The notes beneath the pieces were generated by a model. It searched no databases. It saw only the letters and a list, made by a program, of their open reading frames with translations, and was not told the DNA's origin. The position numbers and the translations under genes were made by a program. A DNA stretch of 63,816 nucleotides, counting the filler, from Craspedostauros australis (taxonomy: Eukaryota), in assembly GCA_030167865.1 (NCBI GenBank). It is 19 parts of 19 records of this genome, joined end to end, with 100 filler letters (N's around TTAATTAATTAA, not from the genome) between each part and the next. Parts side by side here need not be neighbours in the genome. Positions count along the whole stretch, not along the records: positions 47,251 to 50,508 come from JALAGF010003171.1; positions 50,609 to 53,966 come from JALAGF010003173.1; 17 more parts are not named here. One strand, 5' to 3'. Positions 1,962 to 53,403 of the stretch are shown piece after piece; within the stretch, counting starts at the first letter, position 1, and each line of letters begins with the position of its first letter.

Positions 1962-3512
1962 CTACGCTCCATGCTCCTGTTGCCAAGTCGCAAGGAAATC
2001 AACGATCTCAGTGTGTCCAAGATCTGCAGCAATAATCGCAGGTGTGCAGTTGCGGCATAGCACATTGATGTCAGCATTGCTGGACTCGACCAGATACTTG
2101 ACAACATCCAAGTGACCGCGGACACATGCAGCATGAAGTGAGGTGAGGCCTTCGTTGTTTTGTGCGTTGACATCGGCGTTGGAAGACTCCAGTAGATACT
2201 TCACAACATTCATGTGACCGTTTAAGCATGCAACATGAAGTGAGGTGACGCCGATGGTAGTTTGTGCGTTGACATCGGCGTTGGAAGATTCCAGTAGATA
2301 CTTGACAACATTCAAGTGACCATTTTGACATACAATATGAAGTGGGGTGAAGCCGCCACTGTCTTGGATATTGACGTCGATGTTGGAAGATCCCAGAAGA
2401 GACTTTCCAAGATCAGTCTTGCCGTTTAAGCATGCAATATGAAGTGGGGCTAAGCCGTGACGGCCTTGGACGTTGACGTTGACGTTGGGAGATTCCAGAA
2501 GAGACTTTGCAACTTCCAAACGGCCGAATAAACATGCCGCAAATAATGGAGTGCAGCCTTCGCTGATTTCTGTATTGACATCGGCGTTGGAAGAGTCCAA
2601 CAAATATTTGACAACGTTCGAATGGCCGTATAGGCAGGCATTATAAAACGGAGTGGCACCACGAGCATCTTGGACGTTGACATCAGCATTGCATGAGTCC
2701 ACCAAATACTTCACAACCTCCAAAGGGTCACGTCCAGAGTACTCAACATTCAATGAAGCATATTGATTCCACCTCCGAAAATCGGGGGGAGTGGATCGTA
2801 TTTCGTCCCTGCGCTCCATCATTTCCGAAGCGCCACTTTGGCATGCATAATGCAGCAGCGTGCAGCCAGCACTATCCACGATAGTGACATCGACGTTGAG
2901 CGATTGCACCAAATACTTCATGCAGTCCAGATGACCTCCCAAGCATGCCCATTGAAGTGGAGTGAGGCCGCGAGTGTCCCGAACATCGATGTCTGCATCA
3001 CATGAGTCCACGAGGTACTTCGCGCAATCCAAATGGCCATGATGGAAAGTGCACTGGAATGCAGTTGCGCCACGGCGACCAGGGATGGATATGTCAGCGT
3101 TGCATGCTTCCACCAGGTACTTCACGCAATCCAGGTGGCCATTCCAGCATGCTGACACAAGCGGGGTGCTCCCATTGTTGGATTGGATGTTGATGTAGGT
3201 CGAGCTTGATTTCAACAGATACTTCACACAAGCCAAGTGGCCTTTGCTGCATGCTCGATGCAGGAGAGTCTTGCCATTGTCATCCTTGATGCTACCGTGA
3301 TCGTCTCTTGGATTCTTGTTCTTCCATTTCTTCAACACCTTCAGATTACCGCGCTTGGCAGCGCGAAGGAGTTTGTCTTTGGTGATGTTGGGCATGTCGG
3401 CGTCACGATTGTTGGCTGCGACGTGTGATGTGGCGGTATTGTGTGAGTGATGTCCGAAAGCTGAAGCAATCCGCGACAGTACATTGCGGATGAATGAAGA
3501 ATAGAAACACAT
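1962..3512 (-). CDS. Ankyrin-repeat protein (about 12 repeats)
   Basis: Repeated G-x-T-P/S-L-H-x-A-C-x-x-G-H-L-x-V-V-K-Y-L motifs and near-identical 99-bp units at 2117-2314. Start is probably ATG 3512 or 3395; the ORF-track start at 3605 lies inside the LTR. Confidence 0.9.
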   Translation of the reverse strand: MCFYSSFIRNVLSRIASAFGHHSHNTATSHVAANNRDADMPNITKDKLLRAAKRGNLKVLKKWKNKNPRDDHGSIKDDNGKTLLHRACSKGHLACVKYLLKSSSTYINIQSNNGSTPLVSACWNGHLDCVKYLVEACNADISIPGRRGATAFQCTFHHGHLDCAKYLVDSCDADIDVRDTRGLTPLQWACLGGHLDCMKYLVQSLNVDVTIVDSAGCTLLHYACQSGASEMMERRDEIRSTPPDFRRWNQYASLNVEYSGRDPLEVVKYLVDSCNADVNVQDARGATPFYNACLYGHSNVVKYLLDSSNADVNTEISEGCTPLFAACLFGRLEVAKSLLESPNVNVNVQGRHGLAPLHIACLNGKTDLGKSLLGSSNIDVNIQDSGGFTPLHIVCQNGHLNVVKYLLESSNADVNAQTTIGVTSLHVACLNGHMNVVKYLLESSNADVNAQNNEGLTSLHAACVRGHLDVVKYLVESSNADINVLCRNCTPAIIAADLGHTEIVDFLATWQQEHGA

Positions 3513-3581
3513 CGTGTGGACGTGACGAGATGATGTGAGTTGTCGCTGATGTGATATGAGAGGAATGGAGTATGTATGCGA

Positions 3582-3899
3582 TGTTGAAACAACAACTCTT
3601 GCCACAGTCCCAACCCGGCAATGAACCGGAGCGATAGACTAGAAGCAGAGAAGTGAGATTGTTGTGGGTGGTGTAATCAGATAGTTTACACAAGTTTGTG
3701 TGCTTTTGTTTGCTTTGCCTGTTTTGCTTGTTTGTTGTTCTTGTTCGCCATCTTCTTGCTGTTTGCCTTGTGCTGCGCAGCATGATGTTGATGATGGCTC
3801 CCAGCCGTTGATTTGCATCGGTGGTTGGCATTCGCGTCCTTGCTCCGTCCGGATTCCATTCCGGCGGTTTTGTTCCGCTCAGAGTCTACTGCACCAACA
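3582..3899 (-). mobile_element. 3' LTR (318 bp) of Ty1/copia element
   Basis: Bounded by TGTTG (3582) and CAACA (3899). On the minus strand it is preceded by purine-rich GAAGGAG (PPT-like), just after the RNase H motif. Confidence 0.7.
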
Positions 3900-9559: not shown

Positions 9560-10090
9560 CCAGCTCACAACTACCATAGCGACATCTGGGTTGTGTGTGT
9601 TGATGGTACCCACTGTCGCATTGAGGAACCAAACCATCCCACACTGCCACAAGACAAGACCTACTATTCACACAAGTTTCATCGTGCAGGGATGAACTAT
9701 GAACTAGCATTGGCAGTTTCAGAGAGTCGGTTGATTTGGATGAATGGGCCATTCAAAGCAGGAACAAACGATGTATCTATATTCAAAGACCACGGTCTGA
9801 AGCAGAAACTCGAATCCATAGGAAAGATGGGCATTGCTGACAATGGGTATGTTGGGTATCCAACAATCCTCAGCACACCGAACACCGATGACAGCCCAGA
9901 AGTTGCAAAGTTCAAAGCGCGAGCGCGCATGCGTGTGGAGGCATTCAACAATCTCACAAAGACCTTCGGTGTGTGCAGCAGCAAATTCCGACACAAAGTG
10001 CCAAAATTCTCCACCTGCTTTGAGGCCGTCTGCGTTCTGTGCCAATACAAAATGGAACTTGAACAGCCAATCTTCGATACATACGTCTGA
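9560..10090 (+). mobile_element. PIF/Harbinger-like (DDE_Tnp_4) transposase, catalytic C-terminal half
   Basis: VDGTHCRIEEP, YYSHKF, GPFKAGTND, IADNGY, RARMRVEAFN, KFRHK. Confidence 0.85.
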
Positions 10091-10247
10091 GCACATAAAG
10101 CAGACATCAATAGAGTACTACTGTTTCTTGGAATGCCAACTTTTAGATATTATTGTTGATGCGTGTGATTGTGTGCTCCGCAAAACTGTGGATCTTACCA
10201 TGTATAGAAAAATGCTACAATGAAGTGTCGCATGCTAAATTGATTGG

Positions 10248-12077
10248 TTATGGTTCCCCGCTTTTGAATCGCTTGTTCTGCATGGTCTCATCATGCATCA
10301 TGAAGTCGAGAGTGTGCTGACCGTCTGCGATGTGGCTCCGCATGCTCGCAATTGCTTGACTGGCAAGTGCGAGAACTTCCGAATCATGCGAGGAGCTGTC
10401 TTCTGTTGATGCATACTGGCTTGATGGCTCTTGTGCAGCAGCAACAGCCAAAGAAGAGAGAGCGCTGTCCCCATCTCCACTAGATGTTTCAAATGCTCTA
10501 TATGCTTGAGGGTTGTACGAATTGTTTGCTGGGGGAGCTTCCTGCACTGGAGGGATGCCACCCGCTGAAGAAACTGCGAGAGGTTGGTGGATTTCGTTGG
10601 TCCGAGCTCCCCCACGGAAATTGGAGGAGCTGTGGACTGGGAAAGGGGCTGGTGTGTTGGCGGAGATGTTGCATTTCGAGCTCATCTCAGATGCAACTGT
10701 GTACTCATCGTACATGGATGGTGCGTCAGTCCCATTGCAGCCTATGATTGTGAACAGTGAGAGAGTCAAGTCGAGCCAATTTGAATGTGATGGTTAGAAC
10801 GATTAGGACGTAGAGCACTCTTCATGCATGCAAAGCCCCATCAAAGCATACCTTCATCGTCTTCTCCACTCAGCTGGCGAGCAAGACGGCTCTTGCGGAT
10901 CTTCTGCGCAGGACCGCGTTTCTCAGGTTCGATATCTGCGCGTGCAACCTTCCACACAACGTATCGCTCAGAAACGCCAGAGCTGGGTGTCTCTTTCCAC
11001 TTTGCACGGATCAGTTTGGGGTCGATGATGCCATCCTCGGAGTCCTCCTGAATCTCGGTCACGTCCAATACATGATCGCTGGGGAAGATCAGACGTATCT
11101 GTTTGAGTTCTGGCCCTCCACTCTTTGGGAGCTTGTTGATGGCGTTGTCTAAGCCTGCGAGCTCATCAGGTGTCAGCTTCTTGGCAAAGTCTTCACGATT
11201 TTCGAAAAACGCGTGTTCGATGGCTGGTAGTGTGATGAGCACCTCATTGTTGGCAATGATCTGTGCCATGTACACCTCAATGTTGTTGTAGGCCCGGGTG
11301 ACTCGTTGTTCGATCTGACATATGATCATGTATCCTTGGAACATGGAGATGTTGTGGTTGGCACGGGATTTGATGGCAGGGATGTTAGTCAGAGGCACCA
11401 CCTTCACTTCTCGATTCGCATGAAAATTTGCGATGTCAACGGTCGTGGTTGCTGTGGATAAGAAGAGGGAAAGATGATGACAAAGAAGCAAGGTGGTGTG
11501 AGTTGGGGGGGGGGGGTTGCATTGTGTTTCATTGCATTGCAGACAATGTAAGGGACCCACCAATGTTTCCTTGGCTTGAATCCATCTTCAATTGATGCTG
11601 TGGGGTATGCAGCAATGATTTTGGACTGATGAGTCTGCTCGACGATGGCGTTGGCTTCACAGACAGTGCGTATTTGGTTTGATTTGGCGATGACAAGCTG
11701 AGATGTTGGATGCTGGATGTCAGATCATCAATACTGTTGCTTGTGGATGGCGTTCTCTGCAGCTGTTGTGGTCCTCTATTTCTCTTGATGCCAAGAGCCT
11801 TGATTACTTTCTGCTCGTAGTCAATGGTGTTGAGTTGCTTCCACTTGACTACTTTCTTGCGGATGGCATTCCGACGAGCAGACAGTTTTTCGCCGTAGAG
11901 TTCCGGATTCCTGTCGCAGAGTATCTTCGTTGGCTGCTTTCCAAGACGGTTGAAATGCTGGATACCTCCTTCGTCTTCGATGTCTTGAGCAAGGGAGGCA
12001 AGGACACACGTTGGCAGGCGGATGCGCTGCGGGCTGGCGTATGGTGGTGGTGTCTGTTTCGGTGGTGTCGATGGCAT
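10248..12077 (-). CDS. Three-exon uncharacterised gene convergent with the transposase (putative accessory gene A)
   Basis: Consecutive ORFs 11529-12089, 10841-11563 and 10248-10769 are linked by GT..AG introns at about 11453-11560 and 10742-10850. N-terminal helical motif LAQDIEDEGG...LCDRNPELYG...RRNAIRKKVVKWK. Confidence 0.55.
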
Positions 12078-12431
12078 GATTATGATCAAGACGCGAATTT
12101 GAGAGCATCAACCACCACAATGAAGCAACGCCGGCCCAGCGGCGAAGAAACAATAACCGGCAACAACCCACGACGATGCCAATCGAAACCTGACGATGTT
12201 CAGTGGCACAACCACACAGCAGCTCGACGTACGAACCTTGCTGCCAATCAAACCGTCGAGGAGCATGTCCAGGACTCTCTCTGTCCGTCCTCACGCACCA
12301 CGGACGACCTCGTGCCCTGTCCTGACGTTCGAACCAACGATACAGTTTGCATTTTCCTCAGCTGTTGGCAGGTACTAAATTAGCCCCACAGAAGGCGGCG
12401 TCACCACAACCAAGAGACATCGCCAGAAGAA

Positions 12432-13508
12432 ATGGACAGCGACAGCGGGCCAATGCCACAACCCACATCGGAAACAGAGAGATCGAGGATCACAGGAAAC
12501 TTGATCCATGAAATCACACACGCACATGTTTCAAAAACAGAGGGGTGCATCATGGTGATGACAAAACAAAACCAAGACACCTCAAAGGAGGCACAGGCAT
12601 CGACCACAACAACAATGGCACACCACAAGAACAGGCCACCAAGTACAAGGAAGACCACCCCATGCCTGTCAGCAGGGCGTCTGCGCGTGAACACCAAGAC
12701 CACGCCTCAAACAACATCCATCCAGGGCAACAGGAGAATTTCCTCGACGCCCCATGCTTCAACGCCAACCCCTCCAATGCAGCAAGGTATGGACACTCAT
12801 CGGCAGATACCATCAAGGTGCACAACCAAGTCAGCACGCCCATCATCAAATCTTGTTGCAACAAGAAACAGGATGGCTTGTGCAAAGCCAGCTGCACTGC
12901 CACGGAAAACCAACCCAACAGGCACCTCAAAACTGGCATTCATCGAGCCTGCTGTTGAATGGCGCCACAGCAAGGCAAAGGAATTGCTTCGTGAAGCCAT
13001 CGTCAGAGGAGACATTTCAAAGGTGGGACAAAAGCGAGGCCAGAAGCAAAAAGAAAACAATCCTCCTCCACCACGGGAAGTCTATCATATGATACCGGAG
13101 CTTTCAAAGTATGATCCAGCAAAATTTGCAGGTCGTCTGAATACCCTCCGACGACAGATTGCCGCAAATGATGAACGGAAAGAGATTGACCAGCGTGCTT
13201 TTGACAACTATGCAAACAATCACACAAAACCAGCAACGAACCATCTTGGAGAACCACAATGGGAGGGATCAGATATCCAAACATCTCTGAAAACTGCAAT
13301 GAAGAACAACGAAGGCAATGGCATGACAATTCGGCAATTCTATGACTCCAAGGAGGTGTTCCAAACAGTGCCAATGGCCAAATTCAGAAATCATGTGGCA
13401 CAAGAGCAGCGCCTCCGCAAATACAAGAACTATTTGAGCAATAGAGAGCAGTCAAAGAATGACAAGATAGAGGCACTCCGAAGAAAGGGTGCATCGAAAA
13501 CAAAATAG
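12432..13508 (+). CDS. Basic protein with two tandem W-x-x-S three-helix (Myb/SANT/MADF-like) domains (putative accessory gene B)
   Basis: EWRHSKAKELLREAIVRG...VY...YDPAKFAGRLNTLR and PQWEGSDIQTSLK...FYDS...FRNHVAQE. The true start is uncertain. Confidence 0.6.
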   Translation: MDSDSGPMPQPTSETERSRITGNLIHEITHAHVSKTEGCIMVMTKQNQDTSKEAQASTTTTMAHHKNRPPSTRKTTPCLSAGRLRVNTKTTPQTTSIQGNRRISSTPHASTPTPPMQQGMDTHRQIPSRCTTKSARPSSNLVATRNRMACAKPAALPRKTNPTGTSKLAFIEPAVEWRHSKAKELLREAIVRGDISKVGQKRGQKQKENNPPPPREVYHMIPELSKYDPAKFAGRLNTLRRQIAANDERKEIDQRAFDNYANNHTKPATNHLGEPQWEGSDIQTSLKTAMKNNEGNGMTIRQFYDSKEVFQTVPMAKFRNHVAQEQRLRKYKNYLSNREQSKNDKIEALRRKGASKTK

Positions 13509-13809
13509 AGTAGAGTACTGCAGTATGGATTCCTGATATTGTGCAACTAGTTCTCCAATGATGTCTCTGATAGTTGTGTGGACAAGGGCAGTGGAGCGCG
13601 AAATTAGGCACTCTCTCCCTACTCCCTGCAAAGAACGGAAAATGCGTTGAGCTTGCAAGCGACAACACTAGTTGTGGAGTTTTGTGGGTGATGAGTCGTG
13701 TTAAAGTAGACTAAAATAGAGCACACCCAAAACCATCCACGCTGATTGCAGGACATCACTCTCCAAAGATGCTTCCTCGAGATGTGCCCCACGCTTCTGG
13801 GCTACTGTG

Positions 13810-13983
13810 AAAACGTGCCCTAAATAGGGCATCTTTTCAAAACGTGCTCTAAATAGGGCACCTTTTCAAAACGTGCTCTAAATAGGGCATCTTTTCAAAA
13901 CGTGCCCTAAATAGGGCATCTTTTCAAAACGTGCTCTAAATAGGGCACCTTTTCAACACGTGCCCTAAATTAGGGCACGTTTT
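13810..13983. repeat. Tandem array of six 29-bp palindromic units
   Basis: Unit AAAACGTGC(C/T)CTAAATAGGGCA(T/C)CTTTTC starts at 13810, 13839, 13868, 13897, 13926 and 13955. Confidence 0.95.
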
Positions 13984-14249
13984 GTTTCGCTGCAGCTGAG
14001 AGACATTTCAATCACGGATTGAAACTAAAAACTGTCGGAGACGACATCCAAACCGCGACTAAATAACTCGCATTCATGGCTGCAAATGTCCGTAAAAGCA
14101 ATTGTGTTGTTGTCCGTTAGTCCGATAGTCCGTTTTACCGGAAGCCCCNNNNNNNNNNNNNNNNNNNNNNNNNNNNNNNNNNNNNNNNNNNNTTAATTAA
14201 TTAANNNNNNNNNNNNNNNNNNNNNNNNNNNNNNNNNNNNNNNNNNNNG

Positions 14250-15054
14250 TGTCGAGATGTACATGTGAGTATATGTCGAGGTGTACGTGTATATGTGCAT
14301 CGTTCACCCGTTATTCTCTCATACGCACTTGGACGGTATAACTACATTCGTGTCGATAGTACACTGTGATTCGTCAGAATTACAGTGGAAATGGAACACA
14401 CGAAAAGGGGCAAGATTTCTGGAGGAAATTTGCAAACAACGATTTCTGAGAGAATTGGAAGATCGTCCGTCCATCCATCAATGGTACCAAGAGAATCTCG
14501 AGGTACTTCCCAACTAAACCTCAGATGANNNNNNNNNNNNNNNNNNNNNNNNNNNNNNNNNNNNNNNNNNNNNNNNGAGAGCAGAAGGACGCCTACTGAC
14601 GTCGACAGGATGTCATCGTGTCACCACGTCAACATCTGTCTCCAAGTCAGAGCAGGAGGCAAAGATCCGATGACCGAAGGACATCAGGATCATGGATACA
14701 GAAGGTGAACTTCAAATGGCAAGTACTCATGGAGTAGGAACCAGTACTGAATGAACGGAGTGTCGAATGTGGAGTACGCATCGAGCACGGAGTATCGTGT
14801 AGCATGAGCACACGATATTGAGAGAGAGAGAGAAAGAGAGAGAATACAGAGAGGGGCGAGAGAGCATCTCGTGTACTGACTCATAGTCGGAGACTGAATC
14901 TACAAAACAGATTGAAGCACCGAGAGCATCGGGCAAGAGAACGGGCGTACACCGAGAGGATTGGAGTAGCCAAGTAATGAAATAGCAAACAGACGACTAT
15001 CAACCAACACCATCTTCCACGATCGTAGGTTACCGTGAGCGGAACTTGCCAACA
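14250..15054 (+). mobile_element. LTR-like repeat family A (~800 bp), copy inserted in a Harbinger transposase
   Basis: TGTCGAG...GCCAACA; reverse complement of the copies at 27296 and 39966. Right flank TAGG; the only visible left-flank base is G, consistent with a TAGG TSD. Confidence 0.85.
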
Positions 15055-16091
15055 TAGGAAGGGGAGTGAGGAGGCGGCGGAAGGTCGCTGTGAGAGTATG
15101 ATTGCCCCCACTCTGCGCACTGACGCAAGTGTGTGAGAGTAGAGTTGTATGCAGAGTGCTTGTGCTGCTTGCTCTTCTTGACCTTGATCACTTTGCCCTT
15201 CAGATTCTTGGCGGTGCTGAAGGCGGCATCTGCAGCGACAGCTGTTCCCTTTGGGAGCTTCATGATGTGCTCGTAGATGTGCGCCCAGACACAGGACGTG
15301 GAATCGTGAAAGCTGCCGGGAGTGTTGACCGCACAGTTGACGACTCGCCCTTTCAAGTTCCAAACCAGCACGAGATTGCGGTTGACGTCCTTGGTCCACC
15401 CATTGAAGTCGCGGTTCTGCTCGGCGGGAAGCACTGGTGCGTGGCTGATGAGCTTCAAGCCATCAATCACTGCTACGACGCCAGGCGCAGCAGGGAAGGA
15501 CTTGCTGATGTCCTTCATGTCATCGAGGGCGTCATCGCTTCTATCCCAGAACACCTTGGCGAGGTCATGCATGATTAGTGCTTCTAGCACTGCGTCCATG
15601 CCCAAGTTGAGGTAGTCGTGGAAGACGCTAACGATGCAACCGAATTGGGGTGAGAGGTTCTTGAGCTCGGCCTTTGAAGTGAAATACTTCAAGACGATTG
15701 CAGTCACATCAATGTGCGTGAATCTGCGACGCTTCAGATCCCATTGACGCGGGGCCACAGATCGTTGGTTGACCGGAAGAGCCTCGATGGATGGCTTCAA
15801 GACAGCGGCGAGTTGGACGAAGGACTCCCTGGTGATGCCAACGAAGTTGTAGAACTCCATGGCATCACCATGTGCAAGAATGTTTTGCCAGAAGGTGCCG
15901 GTGTCATACGAGAAAACCCCTGAGCTCTTGTAGCGGCCTCTGCACAAAGCAGTGGGCAAGCTGTCGTGGAGGTAGTCGGCCACAGCGAACGTGAGAAGAC
16001 GCTGCTGTGCCATTAGTTGTTCGGCGATGATGATGAGGACGGTAGCGGTGGCTACCTCGCTGCGGCGTTGGAGGAAAGAGGAGTAATCCAT
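15055..16091 (-). pseudogene. PIF/Harbinger (HARBI1-like) transposase, frameshifted and truncated by repeat-A insertion
   Basis: IDGLKL, FNGW, NTPGSFHDS, ADAAF, LRQCAEWG. An extra G at ~15105-15109 shifts off the EWGNHTLTATFRRL..PLP continuation. Confidence 0.85.
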
Positions 16092-16386
16092 GATGATAGA
16101 GCAGATGCCAATAATATAACACGAAACGCAAATCATACCACAAGCTCTTGGAACAAGCTACATGAAGGAAGGCCACGACGTGCATGAAAGGAGATGGACA
16201 ATCGACATAGATTGATGGTGCATGCAAGGGAGGAAGTGGAGGGTCGCGTGACGATACTTGACCGACAGAGGTCGATAAAAACTGATGCCAACGCTTGTGA
16301 GGGAAGAAATCACATCGACTCGAAATTACCGTTGGAGGAGCGATTTGAGAGGAAGGCACGAGATGAGATCTCGACGAAAAGTGAGA

Positions 16387-44999: not shown

Positions 45000-45569
45000 G
45001 CCAATCACAACCGGACTATCTAAGTAGCGATAATTGACGTAGAACACTGACTAACACACGGAGCTTCTCTCTGACATTGTCGATTGCTTTATGATGCAGT
45101 TGCTTCGTCTGTGCCATGGTGCAATATAGTCATGTGCCTTGACGTGATGGTTTCGGAACCACGGCAGGAAACATGCTTGTGACACGCGGAGGTGGCCAAA
45201 GCGGCAACAGAGAGGGTCAGCATGGTGGACATCGCAGGTCAACACCACCAGAAAAAAGCAAGCCACGCCAGCATGGAAAAATGCCGACAGCAACGCCAAA
45301 ACGCACCAGATCCGGAACTCCGCCAAAAAAGAAACGAAGATAACCTGCAGGAGGGCCAAACGAGAAACCTAACGAACTGAACAGGAACGAAGATCCCAGT
45401 GCGGAGAAGAGTTCAATGCAAAGCAGACTGGATGCAAAGGCAAGCAACATGAAATAGGAATACGCACAAGGCAAGCAAGTCGACTGCACACACGTGCCAA
45501 TGTGGGGCATGCACAAAACAGAGGGGACAAGTGCGAACACGCTATGTGAACAATGCAGACAAGTGCAGT

Positions 45570-45945
45570 TGGTGTGTGTCGACATGTGGTGTTGTGTGGC
45601 GTGGCGTGGCGTTGCGTCGTGCGTGATGCAGTGTGATGTGGCGTTGTGTGATGGTGTGTGATAGTGTGTTGAGTGGAGTTGCGTGCCGTCGTATGTGATG
45701 TTGTGTGATGCAGTGTGATGTGACGGTGTGTGATGGTGTGTTGAGTGGAGTTGCGTTCCTTTGCGTTGCGTCGAGTTGCGGTGTGTGATGGTGCGTTGCG
45801 TTGAGTTGCGGTGTGTGATGGTGTGTTGCGTCGAGTTGCGGTATGTGATGGTGTGTGATGGATGGTATGTGATGTCGTGTGATGTTGTGCGATTTTGTGG
45901 GTGTGTGATTTTGTGTGGTGTTGTGTTGCATTGGGTTGCATGGTG
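45570..45945. repeat. TG-rich low-complexity region with ~30-bp imperfect tandem units
   Basis: GTGTGTGATGGTG(C/T)GTTGCGT(C/T)GAGTTGCG repeated at 45781-45840, plus related units. Confidence 0.8.
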
Positions 45946-46370
45946 CCATGTTCTGTGGTGCACGTGTGGAAACACGAAACGCGGGGAGAGGACGAAACAC
46001 AAACCGAAACCGATACGGATGGCGCAAAACGAGACAAGGCAGAAGAACATGGCGACAGAAAACACAAGCCACACACCTGTGGCTTGGGAAGCATAAGACC
46101 TGCCCGTGTGCGTCACAGCAAGACCGTCGATACTACCGGAGTGGGGCTATTTGACGACAACATTTCGGTCATATCAGTCCAAAGTTGGGGAAGCAATACG
46201 TGAACAAATGCAGAAAATAAGCTTTTTTTTCTGAGCGCCAATTTCCCCTGCTCCCCGAGGGTGCGACCTAGACTGCGATCATAGGAGCGGATGGGTCTGC
46301 CTTGGCTTCTGTTTCTCTGTTTGCATTGAAGGCGCATTCCTCGATGCCTTGTTGGTAGTTCGCCTTCCGA

Positions 46371-46590: not shown

Positions 46591-47340
46591 AGGAGCGGAT
46601 GAGGAATACCGCTTTGGCTCTTCGGTCCGTGTCCCATGATAAAGAACATCTGCGAAAGTAGAAGGATAAGTGTCAGAGTGCGTGGTACGAGTACAAAGTA
46701 ATCGGAGATTTGATTTCTACGAGTACAGCGTGTGCGATGGGGATGATGCAGCACCAATGCGTACGAAACGGTACGGAAGGGTACCACTTCTGACGGTTGA
46801 CACCTCAACTGCCCACCGTCACCGCCACGGATGCAAATGACAGACGTGGGGCAACTGCCCTCGTGTATCACCTCTTTGGGCCAAACATCGAAGGGTGTAC
46901 TCTGTGAGAAGTTGCAACATTTGGAGAGTTGTATCGTTGCTCCTTTGACCACCACGCCCGCACTGATGAGTGCGATCAAGAGATTGTTGCTGCAGAAAAG
47001 CGAAGTTGCTCTCTCTGCCTCGCCCAAGATTGATCTTGTTGACATGCCTGAAATCGTTTGGAACAACTGATTTCCTCGCCCTCACAATACATCAACACCG
47101 TCATCCATAAACCACCACCACTCACAATCTCGAGAGAGACAGAGAGAGAGNNNNNNNNNNNNNNNNNNNNNNNNNNNNNNNNNNNNNNNNNNNNTTAATT
47201 AATTAANNNNNNNNNNNNNNNNNNNNNNNNNNNNNNNNNNNNNNNNNNNNTCAGTCACGAATGGAAATTGTGAGTGAGTCGTGGTAGGCGAAAAAAGAGA
47301 GTTCGCAATTTTTGGGGGGGTTCTCATGTGCTGTACTTAC

Positions 47341-47697
47341 AATGTCATGGCGCAACTCTGCCACGGCTCGGGCCATGACCCACGCCCACTTGCGGAAAGT
47401 TTTCGCGGTGACGTCCATCATCCGTGCCACCACTGTCTCCGCCAAATACATTCGAAGGAACGCGCACATCCAAAGGAGGTGCTTCGGCTTCGCGTCGAAG
47501 GGGAGAAGACCTGTGCCAATCAGGTCTTCCCAGAGGAGGTGAGTAATGTGTGGATCAGTCCCGAACATTCCGCGAAACTCTCGCAACTGTGTATCATTGA
47601 GCGTGTTCGCATCATGACGGTCCAAGTCGCGTCCCATCAGCGCAAAGCCTTCCACCGCAAATTCACCTGCGTAGCTGGCCTGCGACACAACATCCAT
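47341..47697 (-). mobile_element. PIF/Harbinger-like transposase, first exon (N-terminal HTH region)
   Basis: FRGMFG...LWEDL...PKHLLWMCAFLRMY..E...KTFRKWAW, followed by a GTAAGT donor at 47340. Confidence 0.7.
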
Positions 47698-49097
47698 GTC
47701 TGCAAGTCTTGTGTTGGCGCTGCTTCGACTACGTGGAGTACAATTTGGCACGGAGTTGTTCGAAGACAGCGTTTTGTGTGATGACAGCGACAACAGCGAG
47801 TCCACTGGTCGTGGAGGAAGTGCCTGGGCTCCATCTCGTTGTTTCCAACGTCGTACGCTGGCGACAACCACATAGTCTACAAATTAGCTCCTCCAGTTCG
47901 TGCCAACTAGTAGCATGTCGGTGTGGCATGCTCTGTACAAGTAGTGCTTCAGCCTCCCATGACTTCGATTGCATNGGATGGTGTGTCATGTCCCACTTGA
48001 TGTAATCCGTCTCTACTGTGTGGCTTACATGTGGCTACAACAATGCAATTTGCAACAGCCACGGATGTAGACATACTAGAGCAACGCGCGATGCATTGGA
48101 CTGTCTGCTGTACGCGTGCCAATAGTGGAATGATTGTGGCATGGAGTGCCAACTATACAAGCATACAAGCGCGCCTACATAGTGAAGTCGCGGTTATCAT
48201 TAGGCATCTGTTGTCCTTCAATGCAATGCAGGACATATACAGTATCAATGGTAGACTGCTCCACTCAGCTCCGTTACAACAGTCGATGCTGTCGGCTTGC
48301 TTGCTTGTCTTGCTTGATCAACACGTGACGATCAAACGACCGCGCATTTGGGTTCCGGCCCCGCGCTGCAGCGGGGTGCGTGACTTGAGTGGGACGCGGG
48401 AACGCCAAAAGAAACGGAGAAGGTGCGTTCTCGTGGGGGAGCTTTTTTGGCATGCAGCGCAGTTCGTGACCTTCATCAGGTAGTCAAGCTACATCAGTCC
48501 TACGTGGGGATGTGGAAAGATTTCCCTTGCGTCCCATCCAACATGGAAATACCACGAGGTCGAACGGTATTGTAAAATAATTTATTTTGTAATTCCGGCC
48601 CTCTCTCCCCAGCAATTCCACCCAAAAAGGGAAATATCTCACACTGCCGTCGTGGTGACATGAAGAATACGCTGAGAATAAAAAAAATAATTATATTGTA
48701 ATTCCGGGTGGAATTACAATTTAATTCTTTGGGAAGAAGGAATAATCCCTTCAACAATGAAGTGGGATTTCTTTTTAATATGGTACAGGGAGGAGCTGTT
48801 GCTGTCACTTGCGTCGATAGTGTTGTGTGTCCCACCAACATCTATGTGGGACGCCGCCGAACAAGTGCATGCCATGTAATGTGCTACGTAGACATTGCAC
48901 TTTATTAGTTCCTCTGGAAGAACGAAGCGGGAATACCAACACGACTATTACCACCACTACTATCACGCAGGCAGGCAGGCAGGCCAATACACAACTCGTT
49001 CGATTGTATCGCAAATGCGCATGAGACTGCATGCACATCAACATGCACCACAAGAGTGTGTGGTGGAAAGGAGAGTGTAAGCACACAAAAAAGGATC

Positions 49098-50358
49098 ATG
49101 GCCAAGCCGAAACGTTGGGTGTACAGCAGCACACAAGTCCAACTCCTCAAAAAACAAATCAGAAGCGGAGCCATACCACCCGAATGGACTGCAAACGACG
49201 TGTGGAAAAACTCTGAAGCCGCTCGCCAATTCATCCCAACCGAATTTGCGCGAAATCTGGCGAATCTGCGTGCGAAGGTCAGACAGGAACAAAGTAAGTA
49301 CCTTGGATCAATTACGTGTGCAATTATGACTTGATCGACTACTTTATGCTTGACTCATAAAACGTGACTCATAATTTGCGACTCGTGATTGGAATTTTCC
49401 AGTCAGGAAAGACGCCAACGAATCTCCCACCGTGTCCGAGCTTGCCGCGAACGCGAAATCGATTCGAGAAGCTTCTCGAATGATCCGGAGCGACATCGAC
49501 CTGTCAAAGCTGGACAACAACAACAACAACAACAACAACACACCAACGAAGCCACCACCGCCACCGCAACAAACAAACACCACCACCATGAAATGCGCTC
49601 CTTCACCACCAGTCGCCACCACTGACGCCGATGTCATGAAGTGGCTCGACGCAAACAACCAACACGAACTTCCAGTCACTCGCGCCTTCTACCGCAACAA
49701 GAATGGCGAGCGTATCATCGACCTCACCTTCGAACTCACCGGTGGCACTTGCCACAAAGACCTTCGTGTGCATGTTGCGCCTGGGGGCATGTCTGTCGTG
49801 CTTGAAGTAACACAAAACGCTGCTCTCGGCAACATCGAACGTGTGCACGACCATTTGCGTGATGAGTTCACGATTGCGAACAGTGTTTGGGTGGAGCTTA
49901 TTGACGACGAAAAGGCACGTGCGGATGCGGTCACCAAGTCATTGTCGCGTATGAAGCAGCGCGATGGAGCACCAGTTCGCACACAGATTGTCGATTTGCC
50001 GTTCGCTGTGACAAATCGATGGGAACGCGCTGACGATCGCGTTCTCAACGGAATTAACTACGTTGAACTTGAAGTTCCAACGAACGACAAAGAAGCGGTG
50101 GTGAGGGCACCTGTGCTGATTGTCCGCGTTGTTGAGCAAAACAGTTCTCATCCAATCGTTTCTACCGTTCCCAAAGCTCGTTCTCCACATAAACGCCCCG
50201 TGTTCGCTGGCTTGTCGCGGGTTGGGGCGACTAAGCCCCAATTCCGTGTTGACATCAACACGCGCCATACATGTCTGCCCTCCCGTTGCGATGACTCCAG
50301 CATCGGTACTGGGACATGTCATGCGCCATCTACTTTTGAAAAGGCAGGAAGAGTTGAG
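49098..50358 (+). CDS. Intron-containing putative transposon accessory gene (three-helix domain + beta-rich domain)
   Basis: Exon 1 49098-49293 (RWVYSS...LKKQIRSGAIP...VW...FARNLANLR). The phase-1 intron GTAAGT..TTCCAG 49294-49402 joins in frame to ORF 49432. Second donor at 50359. Confidence 0.6.
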
Positions 50359-50780
50359 GTAAGTAAAAGCACAATGACTCGATGACTTTCACGATCACCC
50401 ACGACTCGACGGGTGACAAAAGCACACGGACTAACACACGCAATTTTCTTCCGCTTTGCCAACTCCTTCTTCCAACAGCGCGGTGTGTTTGGGAAGGCTT
50501 TTCCCGAGNNNNNNNNNNNNNNNNNNNNNNNNNNNNNNNNNNNNNNNNNNNNTTAATTAATTAANNNNNNNNNNNNNNNNNNNNNNNNNNNNNNNNNNNN
50601 NNNNNNNNAACTGTGCCAGGCTGGGGTCCTCTCTGTCTTCCACATGGTGTTTTCATGGCATCGCCCTTTCCTTCCTGAGGTGTATGAGATGCTGTCTGCT
50701 TGTTGTGCTTTCCTCACCTCCTGCGATTGGGGTGCCACTACTGCTGCTTCCGTTTTCGTGTTCACCTGATGATTCGGCTT

Positions 50781-53403
50781 TCAACTGCTGCTGTTGCTAC
50801 TGTGATTAGCCTGTGCACCTGATCCTGATGTTGGCACTGTTGAAGTTTCTCCATGGCTTTCTGTGTTGTCATTGGTATCTCCCAGTACATTTGGAGCAAT
50901 CCCATCGGTGCCCTCATGCATGGTAGTGACTTCTCCATCGACTTTCTCTGCTCGCCCCAATTCTGTCTCTTCCGTGATTGTTGCTGCTGGTGCGTTTCCA
51001 GAAACTCGGCCTCCTCCTGCTGCTGCTCCAGTTGTGATCAGTGGTGGTGGTGGAGGTGGCATATTGGATACTCCTGCTCCTGCTGTGGTTGCTGGTGGTG
51101 GTGGTGATGGTGTGCTTCCAGAAACTTGGTCTCCTCCTGCTGCTGCTGTGGTTGCTGCTGCTGGAGGTGGAGGAGGTAGCATATTGGATGCTCCTGCTCC
51201 TGCTGTGGTTGACGGTGTGATTCCGGAAACTCGTCCTCCTGCTGCTCCTGCTATGGTTGCTGGCGGCGGTGGTGGTGGTGGTGGTGTGATTCCGGAAACT
51301 TGTCCTCCTCCTGCTGCTGCTCCAGTTGTGATCAGTAGTGGTGGAGGAGGTGGCATATTGGATGCTCCTGCTCCTCGTGCTGGCGGAGGTGGCATGTTGG
51401 ATGCTCTTGCTCCTCCTGCAGTAGGTGTGCCCGCGGTTGGGATGATCTGAGATGGGAGGAGCTCGTTTCCCAGCTCCCCATCAAGTGTCAGATCCTCATA
51501 GTCGATTGCTCGGCTGTCACGGTGATTGCCTTCAGCAGAATTGTCCAAAATTTTGATCAACAAACCATAGTGGAGGAAAGGTCTCTTCGATGGGGAGCTT
51601 GGTTGGCCTCCTGTTTTGCAGAGCCTCTTCTCTCGTCGTTCCTGTCAATGGAGCGCCAGCTTTGCCTCTGCAGCAGCAAGTCGGATTTCTTGCACTTCCA
51701 GCTCTGACTGCAGAATAGAAGTTGCCTCTGACATGACAGAGTGGATGTCTGTCATGTCAATTGTAGGTGCTCGTACTGGTGCTGGTACCGGTACTGGTGT
51801 CAGGGCTGGGGCTGGCGCTGTTGCCAGTGCCGGTGCTGGTGTGGGTGCTGGTGTGGGCGCTGGTGCTGGAGTTGCCAATGTGGCTGGTGGAAGGGTCCAT
51901 TGCGGATGAGTATTGTTGGAGTGGGATGCTGCTGTTGGGATCGTATCCGTGTGTTGAGTGTTGGTGTTGGAAATGGTGATGGTGCTGTGATTTGTGTGAG
52001 GAAATGTGATGCTGCTGTGGGGGGTTTGGTTGGCACCCACAGAATCAGGTTTCCGCGCATGAGCATGGACGTCCTCCTCCTCCACAAAACGGCATGTTAC
52101 GCCCACACGTGTTGTTTGCTCCTTCAAACGAACAGTGAGAATGAGATGCTCGTGCTCGCGGTCACTGTTATCTTTCACAGTGTGGCGCAGGATTGTAGCC
52201 CCTTTGACAGTGCAACAAGGAGTGCCACAGAACCAAGTATTGATTGGGAATGGCATTGACACAAACATTTTGCACCGTCGGTCTGCTGTGAAGGGCTCGG
52301 TTTTACACTGGCCCTTGTGCGCGAGCTTCTTCTGCTCCATGTCACCGTACCAGCCACCAAGATGTGATGCAAGGACTTGCACGACTCCACCGGGTCCACC
52401 AAGCACTTTGGGTGGGGTGTACAACAACACCACAAATGGCTGTTGTGCTCCATCAACATCATGGTACTGGATTGTCACCTCAGCATCGGTTGGTGTTGCT
52501 GCTGCAGGTAGGTAGAAGTCAATGCCCAGCATGCAATACGCTTGTCCCACTGGCGTCCAAATTTGCGATGTATGGAACACCTCAATGGTCTTGGGGAAAG
52601 CGCAAAACTCTTTCACCTTGTCCTTCTCGGACATCGCGAAGAACTGCGAGAAGCGTTCTTTGAGCGGATCTCGAATCATCAGTGATGTGGGTGAGCTGCA
52701 GCGATTCTCTGTGTAATTGGCAGTGACATCCTCAATTTCACCGTGGTAGACATCATCATCACTCTCAGACTGAGAACTCCGCGAACTCTTCGAACTGTCC
52801 GGACTCAATGATTCCAAACTATCATCCATTTGTCGTTCAGCAGTACACGAAGCGCGATTGGGGCTGTTCTTTCGTGATGTGGGTCTGGCTGCTACCTTGG
52901 AGGTGGCAGTGGCCGTGTTTGGGAGTGTGGGAGGAGATTGTTTGTTGTTGGGAGTCTTGGACAGCATGGCGTTATAGAGCCCATCTGGTGCATCCAATGG
53001 GCGCACGTCGAAGTGAAAATTGCTGTCAACGTCGGGATTGAGTTCCCCGTTGTCTGCGCACAACAAGGAGTGATTGGTATTCATGAGAGGGAAGTGAGGA
53101 AAGAAAAACAGAGTTTGAGAAGTGATGCACCACACACACATGAACATCACTGGAGAGACCAACACCATCATTGCACTCCAACTTACCAAAAAAGATCTTA
53201 TTTTGTAGCAGCTGTGACTTAATCTCCTTCCATCCTGCAGCAAAGTTCTTGCATGGGTATTTTGTCAGAAATGCGAAATGCTCCTGCAGTCTGCCTGGTT
53301 CCCAAAACCAGAGAGTGCTGTCCTTTGAAAGCTCGTAGATGAGCTGCCTGGCATCCTCGCCCTTCTTCATGAAGCGTGGATTCTTTTCCTTCTTTCGTGG
53401 CAT
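50781..53403 (-). pseudogene. Paralog-like accessory gene with one in-frame TGA and Pro-rich repeats
   Basis: Exon 1 53403-53187; intron GTAAGT..CGCAG 53186-53054 joins in frame to ORF 51645..53243. The TGA at 51645-51647 is in frame with ORF 50781..51563. Confidence 0.55.
50995..51420. repeat. Imperfect coding tandem repeats (GASNMPPPPP / GAAAGGG.VSG)
   Basis: Four SNM(P/L)PPP units within the minus-strand ORF. Confidence 0.8.

Follow-up and report, generated by a model that had tools for sequence, protein, structure and literature searches.

Gene content of the contig at 47251-50508

The window, that is, the whole stretch of 63,816 nucleotides analysed here, consists of some 20 eukaryotic contigs that are not linked to one another and are strung together with N/TTAATTAATTAA linkers, and positions 47251-50508 represent one complete contig of 3258 bp with a linker at both sides. 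A transposase exon on the (-) strand and a spliced gene on the (+) strand were found on this contig in a divergent arrangement (Table 1), and both genes extend past its ends. Because it is a contig of its own, the sequence beyond its ends provides no genomic context for either gene; windows made of chained small contigs readily give a false context. The transposase exon and the (+) gene adjoin on a small contig, of a kind that repeats tend to yield. Element ends (TIRs and the 3-bp TWA target-site duplication) are absent from the 3258 bp, and the inverted repeats detected on the contig are all internal to the spacer between the two genes. Comparison of the contig with all other contigs of the window by tblastn, tblastx and blastn gave a best E value of 0.047, and a second copy of the (+) gene or of the contig sequence was not found within the window. 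Of the 161 ORFs in the window with 110 aa or more, 75 were surveyed with Pfam, as were 8 further ORFs. Selection was visual and took the longest ORF of a given place; the frames left out were mostly overlapping antisense ones. RVT_2 was detected in 6 of the 75 ORFs and DDE_Tnp_4 in 1, and DDE_Tnp_4 was also present in 1 of the 8 ORFs scanned separately.

Table 1. Features of the contig at 47251-50508 and of the related transposase contig in the same window
Feature	Positions	Strand	Description
C-terminal DDE_Tnp_4 part, same transposase subfamily, on the other contig (unit 1)	9560..10087	+	Pfam E=3.3e-15, 56.5 bits
Helical segment of unit 1, previously aligned to exon 1 of the (+) gene	12960..13151	+	similarity within chance
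Transposase intron 1, start	47251..47340	-	GTAAGT donor at 47340-47335; truncated by contig end
Transposase exon 1, very probably of PIF/Harbinger type	47341..47697	-	119 aa, M..ELRHDI
Region between the two divergent start codons	47698..49097	.	1.4 kb
AT-rich repeat cluster	48574..48730	.	intergenic
(+) gene, exon 1	49098..49293	+	65 codons + 1 nt; ATG with A at -3 and G at +4
(+) gene, intron 1	49294..49402	+	109 nt, GTAAGT...TTCCAG, phase 1; junction codon ATC
(+) gene, exon 2	49403..50358	+	low-complexity Asn/Pro linker, then predicted beta-rich region, then tail with several Cys and His
(+) gene, intron 2	50359..50478	+	120 nt, GTAAGT...CAACAG, phase 0
(+) gene, exon 3, start	50479..50508	+	10 open codons; leaves contig

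The (-) exon very probably belongs to a PIF/Harbinger-type (DDE_Tnp_4) transposase, as judged from its homology to a contig from a marine metagenome, L001, which was the only relative detected for the contig. The exon product matched the first exon of L001 with a BLASTP E value of 3e-17 (33% identity, 128 aa) and with a tblastn E value of 4e-15, and a phase-0 intron follows the same codon in both genes (ELADDV|gtaagt in L001 and ELRHDI|gtaagt here). The reading frame of L001 shifts at a G-run. Its downstream and last exon is a DDE_Tnp_4 match (E=2.2e-5) of 24.6 bits, just below the Pfam cut-off of 24.8, and also matched the DDE_Tnp_4 ORF at 9560-10087 of the window (BLASTP E=6e-20, 34% identity). 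Among the six frames, the proposed frame of the exon has the highest codon-usage score. The identification as a transposase first exon, made in the preliminary description, is upheld by the ORF ending at 47341 with a GTAAGT donor and by the DDE domain of the L001 homologue.

The N-terminal transposase region encoded by the exon is probably of HTH type. In a protein atlas, its first match scored 0.96, and HTH_Tnp_4 accounted for 8 of the 30 nearest clusters (best 0.92, 178 shared features), which we use only as a lead. Pfam gave no match at E<=1, HTH_Tnp_4 included, for the exon or for the N-terminus of L001. A homologue search of longer proteins, a weak negative as it needs shared 5-residue words, returned none; nothing was confirmed in the scans of viral contigs with alignments A2 and A1; and a PDB sequence search found designed coiled coils only. 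When A2 was compared by hhalign with the N-terminus of the other DDE_Tnp_4 ORF of the window (15033-16157), no similarity at the profile level was detected (probability 0.1). No acceptor of intron 1 was found within the 90 nt present (47251-47340). The catalytic DDE exon is absent from the contig, which ends at 47251, and this copy may be dead.

The (+) gene consists of three exons with 394 stop-free codons, a lower bound because the frame is open at the contig end, and both introns are of the GTAAGT..AG type. It is a real-looking, lineage-specific spliced gene, and its earlier description as a divergent spliced gene stands. It is very unlikely that the frame is non-functional, a chance or decayed open frame with meaningless domains. 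Such a reading would draw on the coding score of exon 1, which at 0.071 is ambiguous, the opposite strand scoring 0.077, on an exhaustive phmmer search with exon 2, which found 0 relatives among 1.84 billion representatives, and on the poor model of the beta-rich region described below. Against it, a 336-codon stop-free frame is improbable at about 50% G+C, (61/64)^336 being about 1e-7 per start by our own estimate; the three exons join in frame via two exact GTAAGT...AG introns; the start context is good; and the codon-usage score of exon 2 is clearly highest in the proposed frame (0.207 versus 0.060 in the next of the six frames).

In the region between the two start codons, the stretch at 47698-47883 continues the (-) ORF upstream of its ATG; it scores weakly as coding sequence and probably represents 5' UTR. 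The repeat cluster contains a 25-nt unit in two direct copies, each ending TTGTAATTCCGG, and a palindrome with 21-nt arms (48685-48705 and 48710-48730) that are 90% complementary across a 4-nt spacer. The cluster gave 2 matches where 0.16 were expected, and 2 of 100 shuffles reached 2. It may be a promoter element, a protein-binding site or a small foldback insertion.

Predicted domains of the (+) gene product

The product of exon 1 was modelled as three helices (residues 11-23, 32-42 and 48-64) by AlphaFold2 from the single sequence, with a mean pLDDT of 72.4. This agrees with the three-helix domain proposed earlier, and the peptide strings quoted with that proposal were all found in the translations. 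No family was detected by Pfam at E<=1 in the exon 1 product or in the 317-aa exon 2 product, neither Myb/SANT nor YqaJ/nuclease. A search of longer proteins, again a weak negative since shared 5-residue words are needed, found no homologue of exon 1. When the exon 1 model was used in fold searches, neither a specific match nor Myb/SANT emerged, which taken alone is a weak negative; the only weak Foldseek rows were homeodomains at E ~5, which is not significant.

The region at about 49609-50163 in exon 2 was predicted to contain four strands, a 40-residue helix and three strands. Thus the beta-rich character claimed for exon 2 was reproduced in the prediction, but at low confidence (AlphaFold2, pLDDT 44.9). 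In a metagenome scan with exon 2, none of the 579 pattern matches was confirmed. A co-folding run that combined the transposase exon, exon 1 and the beta region gave no verdict, with a score of 0.00 and no controls.

An alpha-crystallin/CS-like fold had been proposed for exon 2. A predicted all-beta stretch of about seven strands would resemble HSP20 (PF00011) and CS domains, whereas the predicted 40-residue helix that interrupts these strands would set exon 2 apart from them. HSP20/CS signals were not detected in Pfam (E<=1), PDB or fold searches, and phmmer against the PDB at E<=10 listed 3 chains, none of which is an sHSP or a CS protein. Two HSP20 clusters were among the nearest atlas clusters of exon 2, but they scored 0.76-0.77, and shuffled proteins attain such values as well. 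The proposed fold is therefore without support from Pfam, PDB or fold searches, although the model, at the above pLDDT, is too poor to exclude it. The proposal had leaned on alpha-crystallin-domain partners of Harbinger-derived complexes in plants. According to a part of PMC5339849, the host alpha-crystallin proteins IDM2 and IDM3 do belong to the same complex as the Harbinger-derived HDP1 and HDP2, but no direct interaction with either was seen. The analogy of exon 2 to the plant IDM proteins is accordingly weak.

Relation to a second transposase contig in the window

The preliminary description aligned exon 1 by eye to a domain at 12959-13155, on the contig portion 9560-14148 (hereafter unit 1, the contig at 47251-50508 being unit 2). 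By-eye alignments of 60-residue helical segments require a shuffle control, and this alignment did not withstand it. BLASTP gave E=0.21 over the C-terminal half only, and Smith-Waterman scores as high or higher were reached by 16 of 300 and 67 of 2000 shuffles. In a comparison of exon 1 with 441 ORFs of the window, the unrelated ORF at 3406-3885 (-) scored 47, above the 42 of the ORF that contains 12959-13155. A motif pattern written from one of the domains misses the other, because the spacing from W..S to L/I/G is off by one residue. The W..S.AK..L...I..G motif family, which we take to be widespread in diatom proteins, was unconfirmed here and was given no weight. Nor was there significant similarity between the two supposed internal repeats of the ORF at 12384-13505, whose score was reached by 581 of 2000 shuffles. 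Exon 1 matched the second of them with a z of 3.8 (7 of 2000 shuffles), but in a gapped, out-of-register alignment. Residues 185-374 of this ORF had no homologue in a search that needs shared 5-residue words, also a weak negative. No profile could be built, since neither exon 1 nor the domain at 12959-13155 has detectable relatives.

Further candidates in the window were dropped. The ORFs at 10844-11587 (-) and 51648-53264 (-) had been considered by eye as sharing the exon 2 architecture, and that at 11532-12107 (-) as a degenerate copy of the helical motif. BLASTP detected nothing in any of them, with shuffle z values mostly from -1.5 to 0.4 for the former two and Smith-Waterman z values within -1.5 to 0.4 for the latter. 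The comparison of exon 2 with 10844-11587 gave a z of 3.3 (4 of 300 shuffles as high), higher than the other comparisons of that set, and was tentatively put down to low-complexity runs.

Independent recurrence of the helical domain beside a transposase had also been claimed. As unit 2 is a contig of its own, units 1 and 2 are unlinked fragments. The ORF at 9560-10087 begins some 13 codons upstream of the first catalytic D and hence complements the exon at 47341-47697. Of one and the same transposase type, unit 1 carries only the 3' (DDE) half and unit 2 only the 5' exon, and independent recurrence is therefore not established. The position of the second gene also differs: in unit 2 it lies upstream of the transposase and head to head with it, and in unit 1 it follows the transposase on the same strand at a distance of 2.3 kb.

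It is a substantial possibility, though less than probable, that the two units are pieces of one element family and possibly of one copy, the supposed second unit being the missing 5' half. The order would then be (+) gene, spacer, transposase exon 1, intron, DDE exon, the ORFs of unit 1 and the 29-bp tandem repeats (13810-13977). The breakpoints fit this order, as unit 2 breaks off after the first 90 nt of intron 1 and unit 1 starts at the 13 codons mentioned, where L001 has 20 exon-2 codons before the first catalytic D. Both halves resemble the single L001 gene to a like degree (33% and 34%), and there is no overlapping sequence between the two contigs to contradict the order. On the other side, no overlap or read evidence links the units, the nearby breakpoints could be due to chance, and a third, unrelated DDE_Tnp_4 ORF in the window (15033-16157) indicates that several Harbinger families coexist. 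A single element would be compatible with the explanation preferred below, but it removes the argument from independent recurrence.

Possible role of the (+) gene and comparison with known PIF/Harbinger systems

Our preferred explanation, held somewhat short of probable, is that the contig represents part of a DNA transposon of the PIF/Harbinger superfamily, in a eukaryote whose GT-AG introns are short, and jointly that the (+) gene encodes the accessory protein of the element. In canonical Harbinger elements, the accessory protein brings the transposase to DNA or into the nucleus. The (+) gene would be the second gene of the element, the counterpart of the Harbinger ORF1 for a Myb-like protein. 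DNA binding, at sites in the element ends or in the shared promoter region, would fall to the small three-helix domain at its N-terminus, and the remainder would make contact with the transposase and carry it to DNA or to the nucleus. No Pfam-recognisable Myb/SANT ORF was found among the scanned ORFs of either transposase contig, and an accessory protein of this lineage, if there is one, would therefore be the product of an orphan ORF. The contig carries no element ends, so that the place of the (+) gene inside the element is putative, and its accessory role is likewise proposed only tentatively.

An unlikely extension is that a PIF/Harbinger lineage of marine protists swapped the Myb/SANT accessory protein for an unrelated two-part protein. 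It would comprise a three-helix DNA-binding head, a low-complexity linker and a novel beta-rich domain, its gene would be transcribed away from the transposase out of a shared spacer, and the GTAATTCC repeat cluster in this spacer would, with the same small likelihood, be its binding site array.

The (+) gene could instead belong to the host as an ordinary gene specific to its lineage, or be a gene fragment that was captured or is decaying, and lie beside a Harbinger insertion with no functional tie to it; we regard this as a substantial possibility, though less than probable. Pfam found no Myb/SANT or other DNA-binding family in the gene, which lacks recurrence in the window and in the databases searched, the likeness to 12959-13155 being noise. 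Furthermore, the contigs of the window are rich in mobile elements, which makes a transposase neighbour cheap, and the palindromic AT-rich cluster in the 1.4 kb spacer could mark a boundary or an insertion. However, canonical elements of the superfamily carry a second gene, as a section of PMC4482050 describes, and no other is visible on the contig. Head-to-head genes with a common spacer fit a co-regulated pair, and small unplaced contigs typically hold repeats more often than unique genes.

As known now, the locus adds another fragment of a known transposon superfamily, found beside an orphan gene in a eukaryote that is poorly sampled. If the orphan is a true accessory gene, it would open two new objects to study, a small DNA-binding module and a beta-rich partner domain, and would be the second departure from the Myb/SANT rule in the superfamily, after the YqaJ ORF of ISL2EU.

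Sections of Han et al. 2015 (PMC4482050) describe most autonomous PIF/Harbinger elements as having two ORFs. The present contig resembles the PIF/Harbinger elements of PHIS in its very probable DDE_Tnp_4-type transposase with a putative N-terminal helical region, recognized via L001 and the DDE ORF of the window, and in the second gene adjoining the transposase exon. The (+) gene has no Pfam-detectable Myb/SANT, a domain that is typical of the second ORF in most, but not all, autonomous elements, and has an additional region predicted to be beta-rich, and unlike a complete element, the contig includes neither the ends (TIRs, TWA duplication) nor the catalytic exon. A further comparison is with the Harbinger ORF1/Myb-like proteins, as in PMC2836001, where PIF/Harbinger elements were studied by yeast excision assays, and with their domesticated forms, such as HDP2 in PMC5339849. 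In canonical elements these proteins are required together with the transposase. The (+) gene is like them in its place beside a transposase, and its product would share with them a small helical, possibly DNA-binding, N-terminal domain, as modelled; in contrast to ORF1, exon 1 has no sequence or fold tie to Myb/SANT/trihelix. The ISL2EU group of PHIS, whose second ORF has a YqaJ domain according to the same part of PMC4482050, differs from the (+) gene, in which Pfam detected no YqaJ or nuclease signal, but it shows that accessory genes of other than the Myb/SANT type have a precedent in the superfamily.

Contig structure and the minus-strand transposase exon

The window brings together unplaced eukaryotic contigs and is rich in repeats. 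Its 63.8 kb are divided into about 20 small contigs by 19 linkers, each reading N44-TTAATTAATTAA-N44. Copia-type reverse transcriptase, ankyrin, LRR and DDE_Tnp_4 domains were found by Pfam among the scanned ORFs, and the genes contain short GT-AG introns. Because the window consists of joined small contigs, neighbourhood arguments across any linker are unsafe, and context ends at the ends of each contig. The contig at 47251-50508 (3258 bp) is nearly identical in extent to the 47341-50508 segment of the preliminary description, and the segment compared with it, 12959-13155, is located in a separate contig, 9560-14148. A Thr/His/Pro-rich, imperfectly repeated stretch with long open frames on both strands was observed at 45217-46146 (-), where Pfam detected no family.

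The minus-strand exon at 47341-47697 is followed by 90 nt of intron and then the contig end. Its proposed frame was the best by codon usage (0.228 vs 0.135 for the next), with the well-supported ORFs of the window as reference. Pfam assigned it to no family, a word-seeded homologue search returned no relatives, and a PDB sequence search matched designed coiled coils only. In the protein atlas, the top match was 0.96, and HTH_Tnp_4 accounted for 8 of the 30 nearest clusters (best 0.92), which serves as a lead only. A metagenome scan gave one confirmed homologue from 140 pattern matches, a marine contig of 1603 bp (L001). Its first exon aligned with the window exon over 128 residues (E=3e-17, 33% identity), the aligned part includes KPKHLLWM and KT.RKW.W, and the intron interrupts both after the same codon and in the same phase. 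The downstream exon of L001 encodes VDGT.., ADDGY and RHETING.., scores 24.6 bits for DDE_Tnp_4 (E=2.2e-5, slightly below the cut-off of 24.8) and matches the window ORF 9560-10087 (E=6e-20), which itself scores 56.5 bits for DDE_Tnp_4. L001 thus matches both sequences, and therefore the minus-strand exon is a transposase first exon, as had been proposed. By sequence comparison, it is placed in the same transposase subfamily as the DDE_Tnp_4 ORF of contig 9560-14148.

Two observations run counter to this assignment. The L001 frame shifts at a G-run (960-975) inside the DDE exon, which would mean either that the copy is decayed or that this low-coverage contig contains a sequencing error. In addition, the window exon does not resemble the N-terminus of a third DDE_Tnp_4 ORF (15033-16157, minus strand, 375 aa, E=1.9e-7), which lies in yet another contig; the window therefore contains two or more Harbinger-type families.

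The divergent plus-strand gene

All of the peptide strings quoted in the preliminary description were found in the translations. The three exons of the plus-strand gene, when joined, gave 394 codons with no stop. The proposed frame of exon 2 was clearly the top by codon usage (0.207 vs 0.060 for the next), and that of the short exon 1 was ambiguous. The spacer between the divergent genes contains an AT-rich cluster at 48574-48730, with two direct copies ending in TTGTAATTCCGG, a palindrome with 21-nt arms and a 4-nt spacer, and a further GCAATTCCACCC copy, seen by eye, at about 48613. The cluster may represent a small foldback insertion, or else serve as a binding site or promoter element.

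Coordinates of the genes and orphan ORFs in the two transposase contigs
Feature	Coordinates	Strand	Remarks
Transposase exon 1	47697 (ATG) down to 47341	-	ends ELRHDI, then GTAAGT donor
Plus-strand gene, exon 1	49098-49293	+	ATG with A at -3, G at +4
Plus-strand gene, intron 1	49294-49402	+	109 nt, GTAAGT..CAG
Plus-strand gene, exon 2	49403-50358	+	
Plus-strand gene, intron 2	50359-50478	+	120 nt, GTAAGT..CAG
Plus-strand gene, exon 3	from 50479	+	open as far as contig end
Orphan ORF series, contig 9560-14148	11532-12107, 10844-11587, 10251-10793	-	convergent with transposase
Orphan ORF, contig 9560-14148	12384-13505	+	head-to-head with minus-strand series

Exon 1 had been aligned by eye with 12959-13155 as a shared three-helix domain. 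This kinship was not supported: BLASTP gave E=0.21 with the C-terminal half alone aligned, the local alignment score was equalled by 16 of 300 and 67 of 2000 shuffles, and among 441 window ORFs the one that contains the segment scored 42 against exon 1 and was surpassed by an unrelated ORF (3406-3885, minus strand) with 47. The segment was also absent from the tblastn matches of exon 1 at E<=10. The W..S..L..I..G spacing is off by one residue between the two, so that a regular expression derived from either one misses the other. The pattern F..[NRK]L..LR, itself derived from these two sequences, occurred in six frames at these two places only, against a roughly estimated chance expectation of about three. 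Homologue searches detected relatives of neither, and for this reason profiles were not available; as far as was testable, no significant profile similarity was found, with tests of low power for helical segments of 60 residues.

An alpha-crystallin/CS-like fold had been proposed for the beta-rich exon 2. In the single-sequence model, which is poor (pLDDT 44.9), four strands are followed by a helix of 40 residues and then by three more strands. No family was found by Pfam at E<=1, no match by phmmer against 1.84 billion representatives, and none for the model by Foldseek at E<=0.001; phmmer against PDB at E<=10 gave three unrelated chains. Two HSP20 clusters ranked third and fourth in the atlas with scores of 0.76-0.77, below the 0.8 that the top match of shuffled proteins reaches or exceeds in a third of cases. 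These searches lend the proposed fold no support; the model is too poor to speak against it. A 539-codon open frame at 51648-53264 (-), whose repeats are rich in Ala, Pro and Thr and whose middle part is beta-rich, resembled exon 2 by eye; it showed no measurable similarity and no Pfam family.

Comparison of the two transposase contigs

The two contigs complement each other as halves of a single transposase type: 47251-50508 holds the 5' exon only, and 9560-14148 the 3' DDE part only, beginning 13 codons ahead of the first catalytic D; the corresponding stretch of L001 comprises 20 codons of exon 2. The two may derive from a single element family or even a single copy, which is somewhat less likely than not. 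The plus-strand gene lies upstream of its transposase, head-to-head, whereas 2.3 kb separate the compared ORF from the transposase part upstream of it; both are on the plus strand, and minus-strand ORFs intervene. With complementary transposase halves and differing gene positions, the claimed independent recurrence of the domain beside a transposase was not supported.

In addition to the end of the transposase, contig 9560-14148 carries at least two more sets of orphan ORFs, and Pfam found a family in none of these ORFs (10251-12107 and 12384-13505). Near the contig end, downstream of the plus-strand ORF, a 29-bp unit, AAAACGTGCCCTAAATAGGGCATCTTTTC, is repeated in 5.8 tandem copies (13810-13977). 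The unit contains a palindrome, and its five matches in the window are all inside this array, a possible cluster of subterminal binding sites in the element.

The element and known Harbinger systems

Contig 47251-50508 is most likely a PIF/Harbinger-type transposon fragment with a lineage-specific gene divergent from the transposase. The preliminary description as a whole was partly confirmed: the transposase call stood, through the L001 bridge, and the homology and fold proposals went unsupported. According to the available part of PMC4482050, most autonomous elements of the superfamily have a second ORF, usually encoding Myb/SANT, or YqaJ in ISL2EU. No Myb/SANT ORF was recognisable by Pfam among the ORFs scanned in either transposase contig, and thus the accessory protein of this lineage, if any, is one of the orphan ORFs. 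The head-to-head plus-strand gene is a plausible, still tentative, candidate for it; nearly as likely, it is simply a neighbouring or captured orphan gene. The analogy drawn with plant Harbinger-derived complexes is weaker than proposed: in the available part of PMC5339849, IDM2 and IDM3 belong to the IDM complex and have alpha-crystallin domains, but no direct interaction linked either of them to HDP1 or HDP2.
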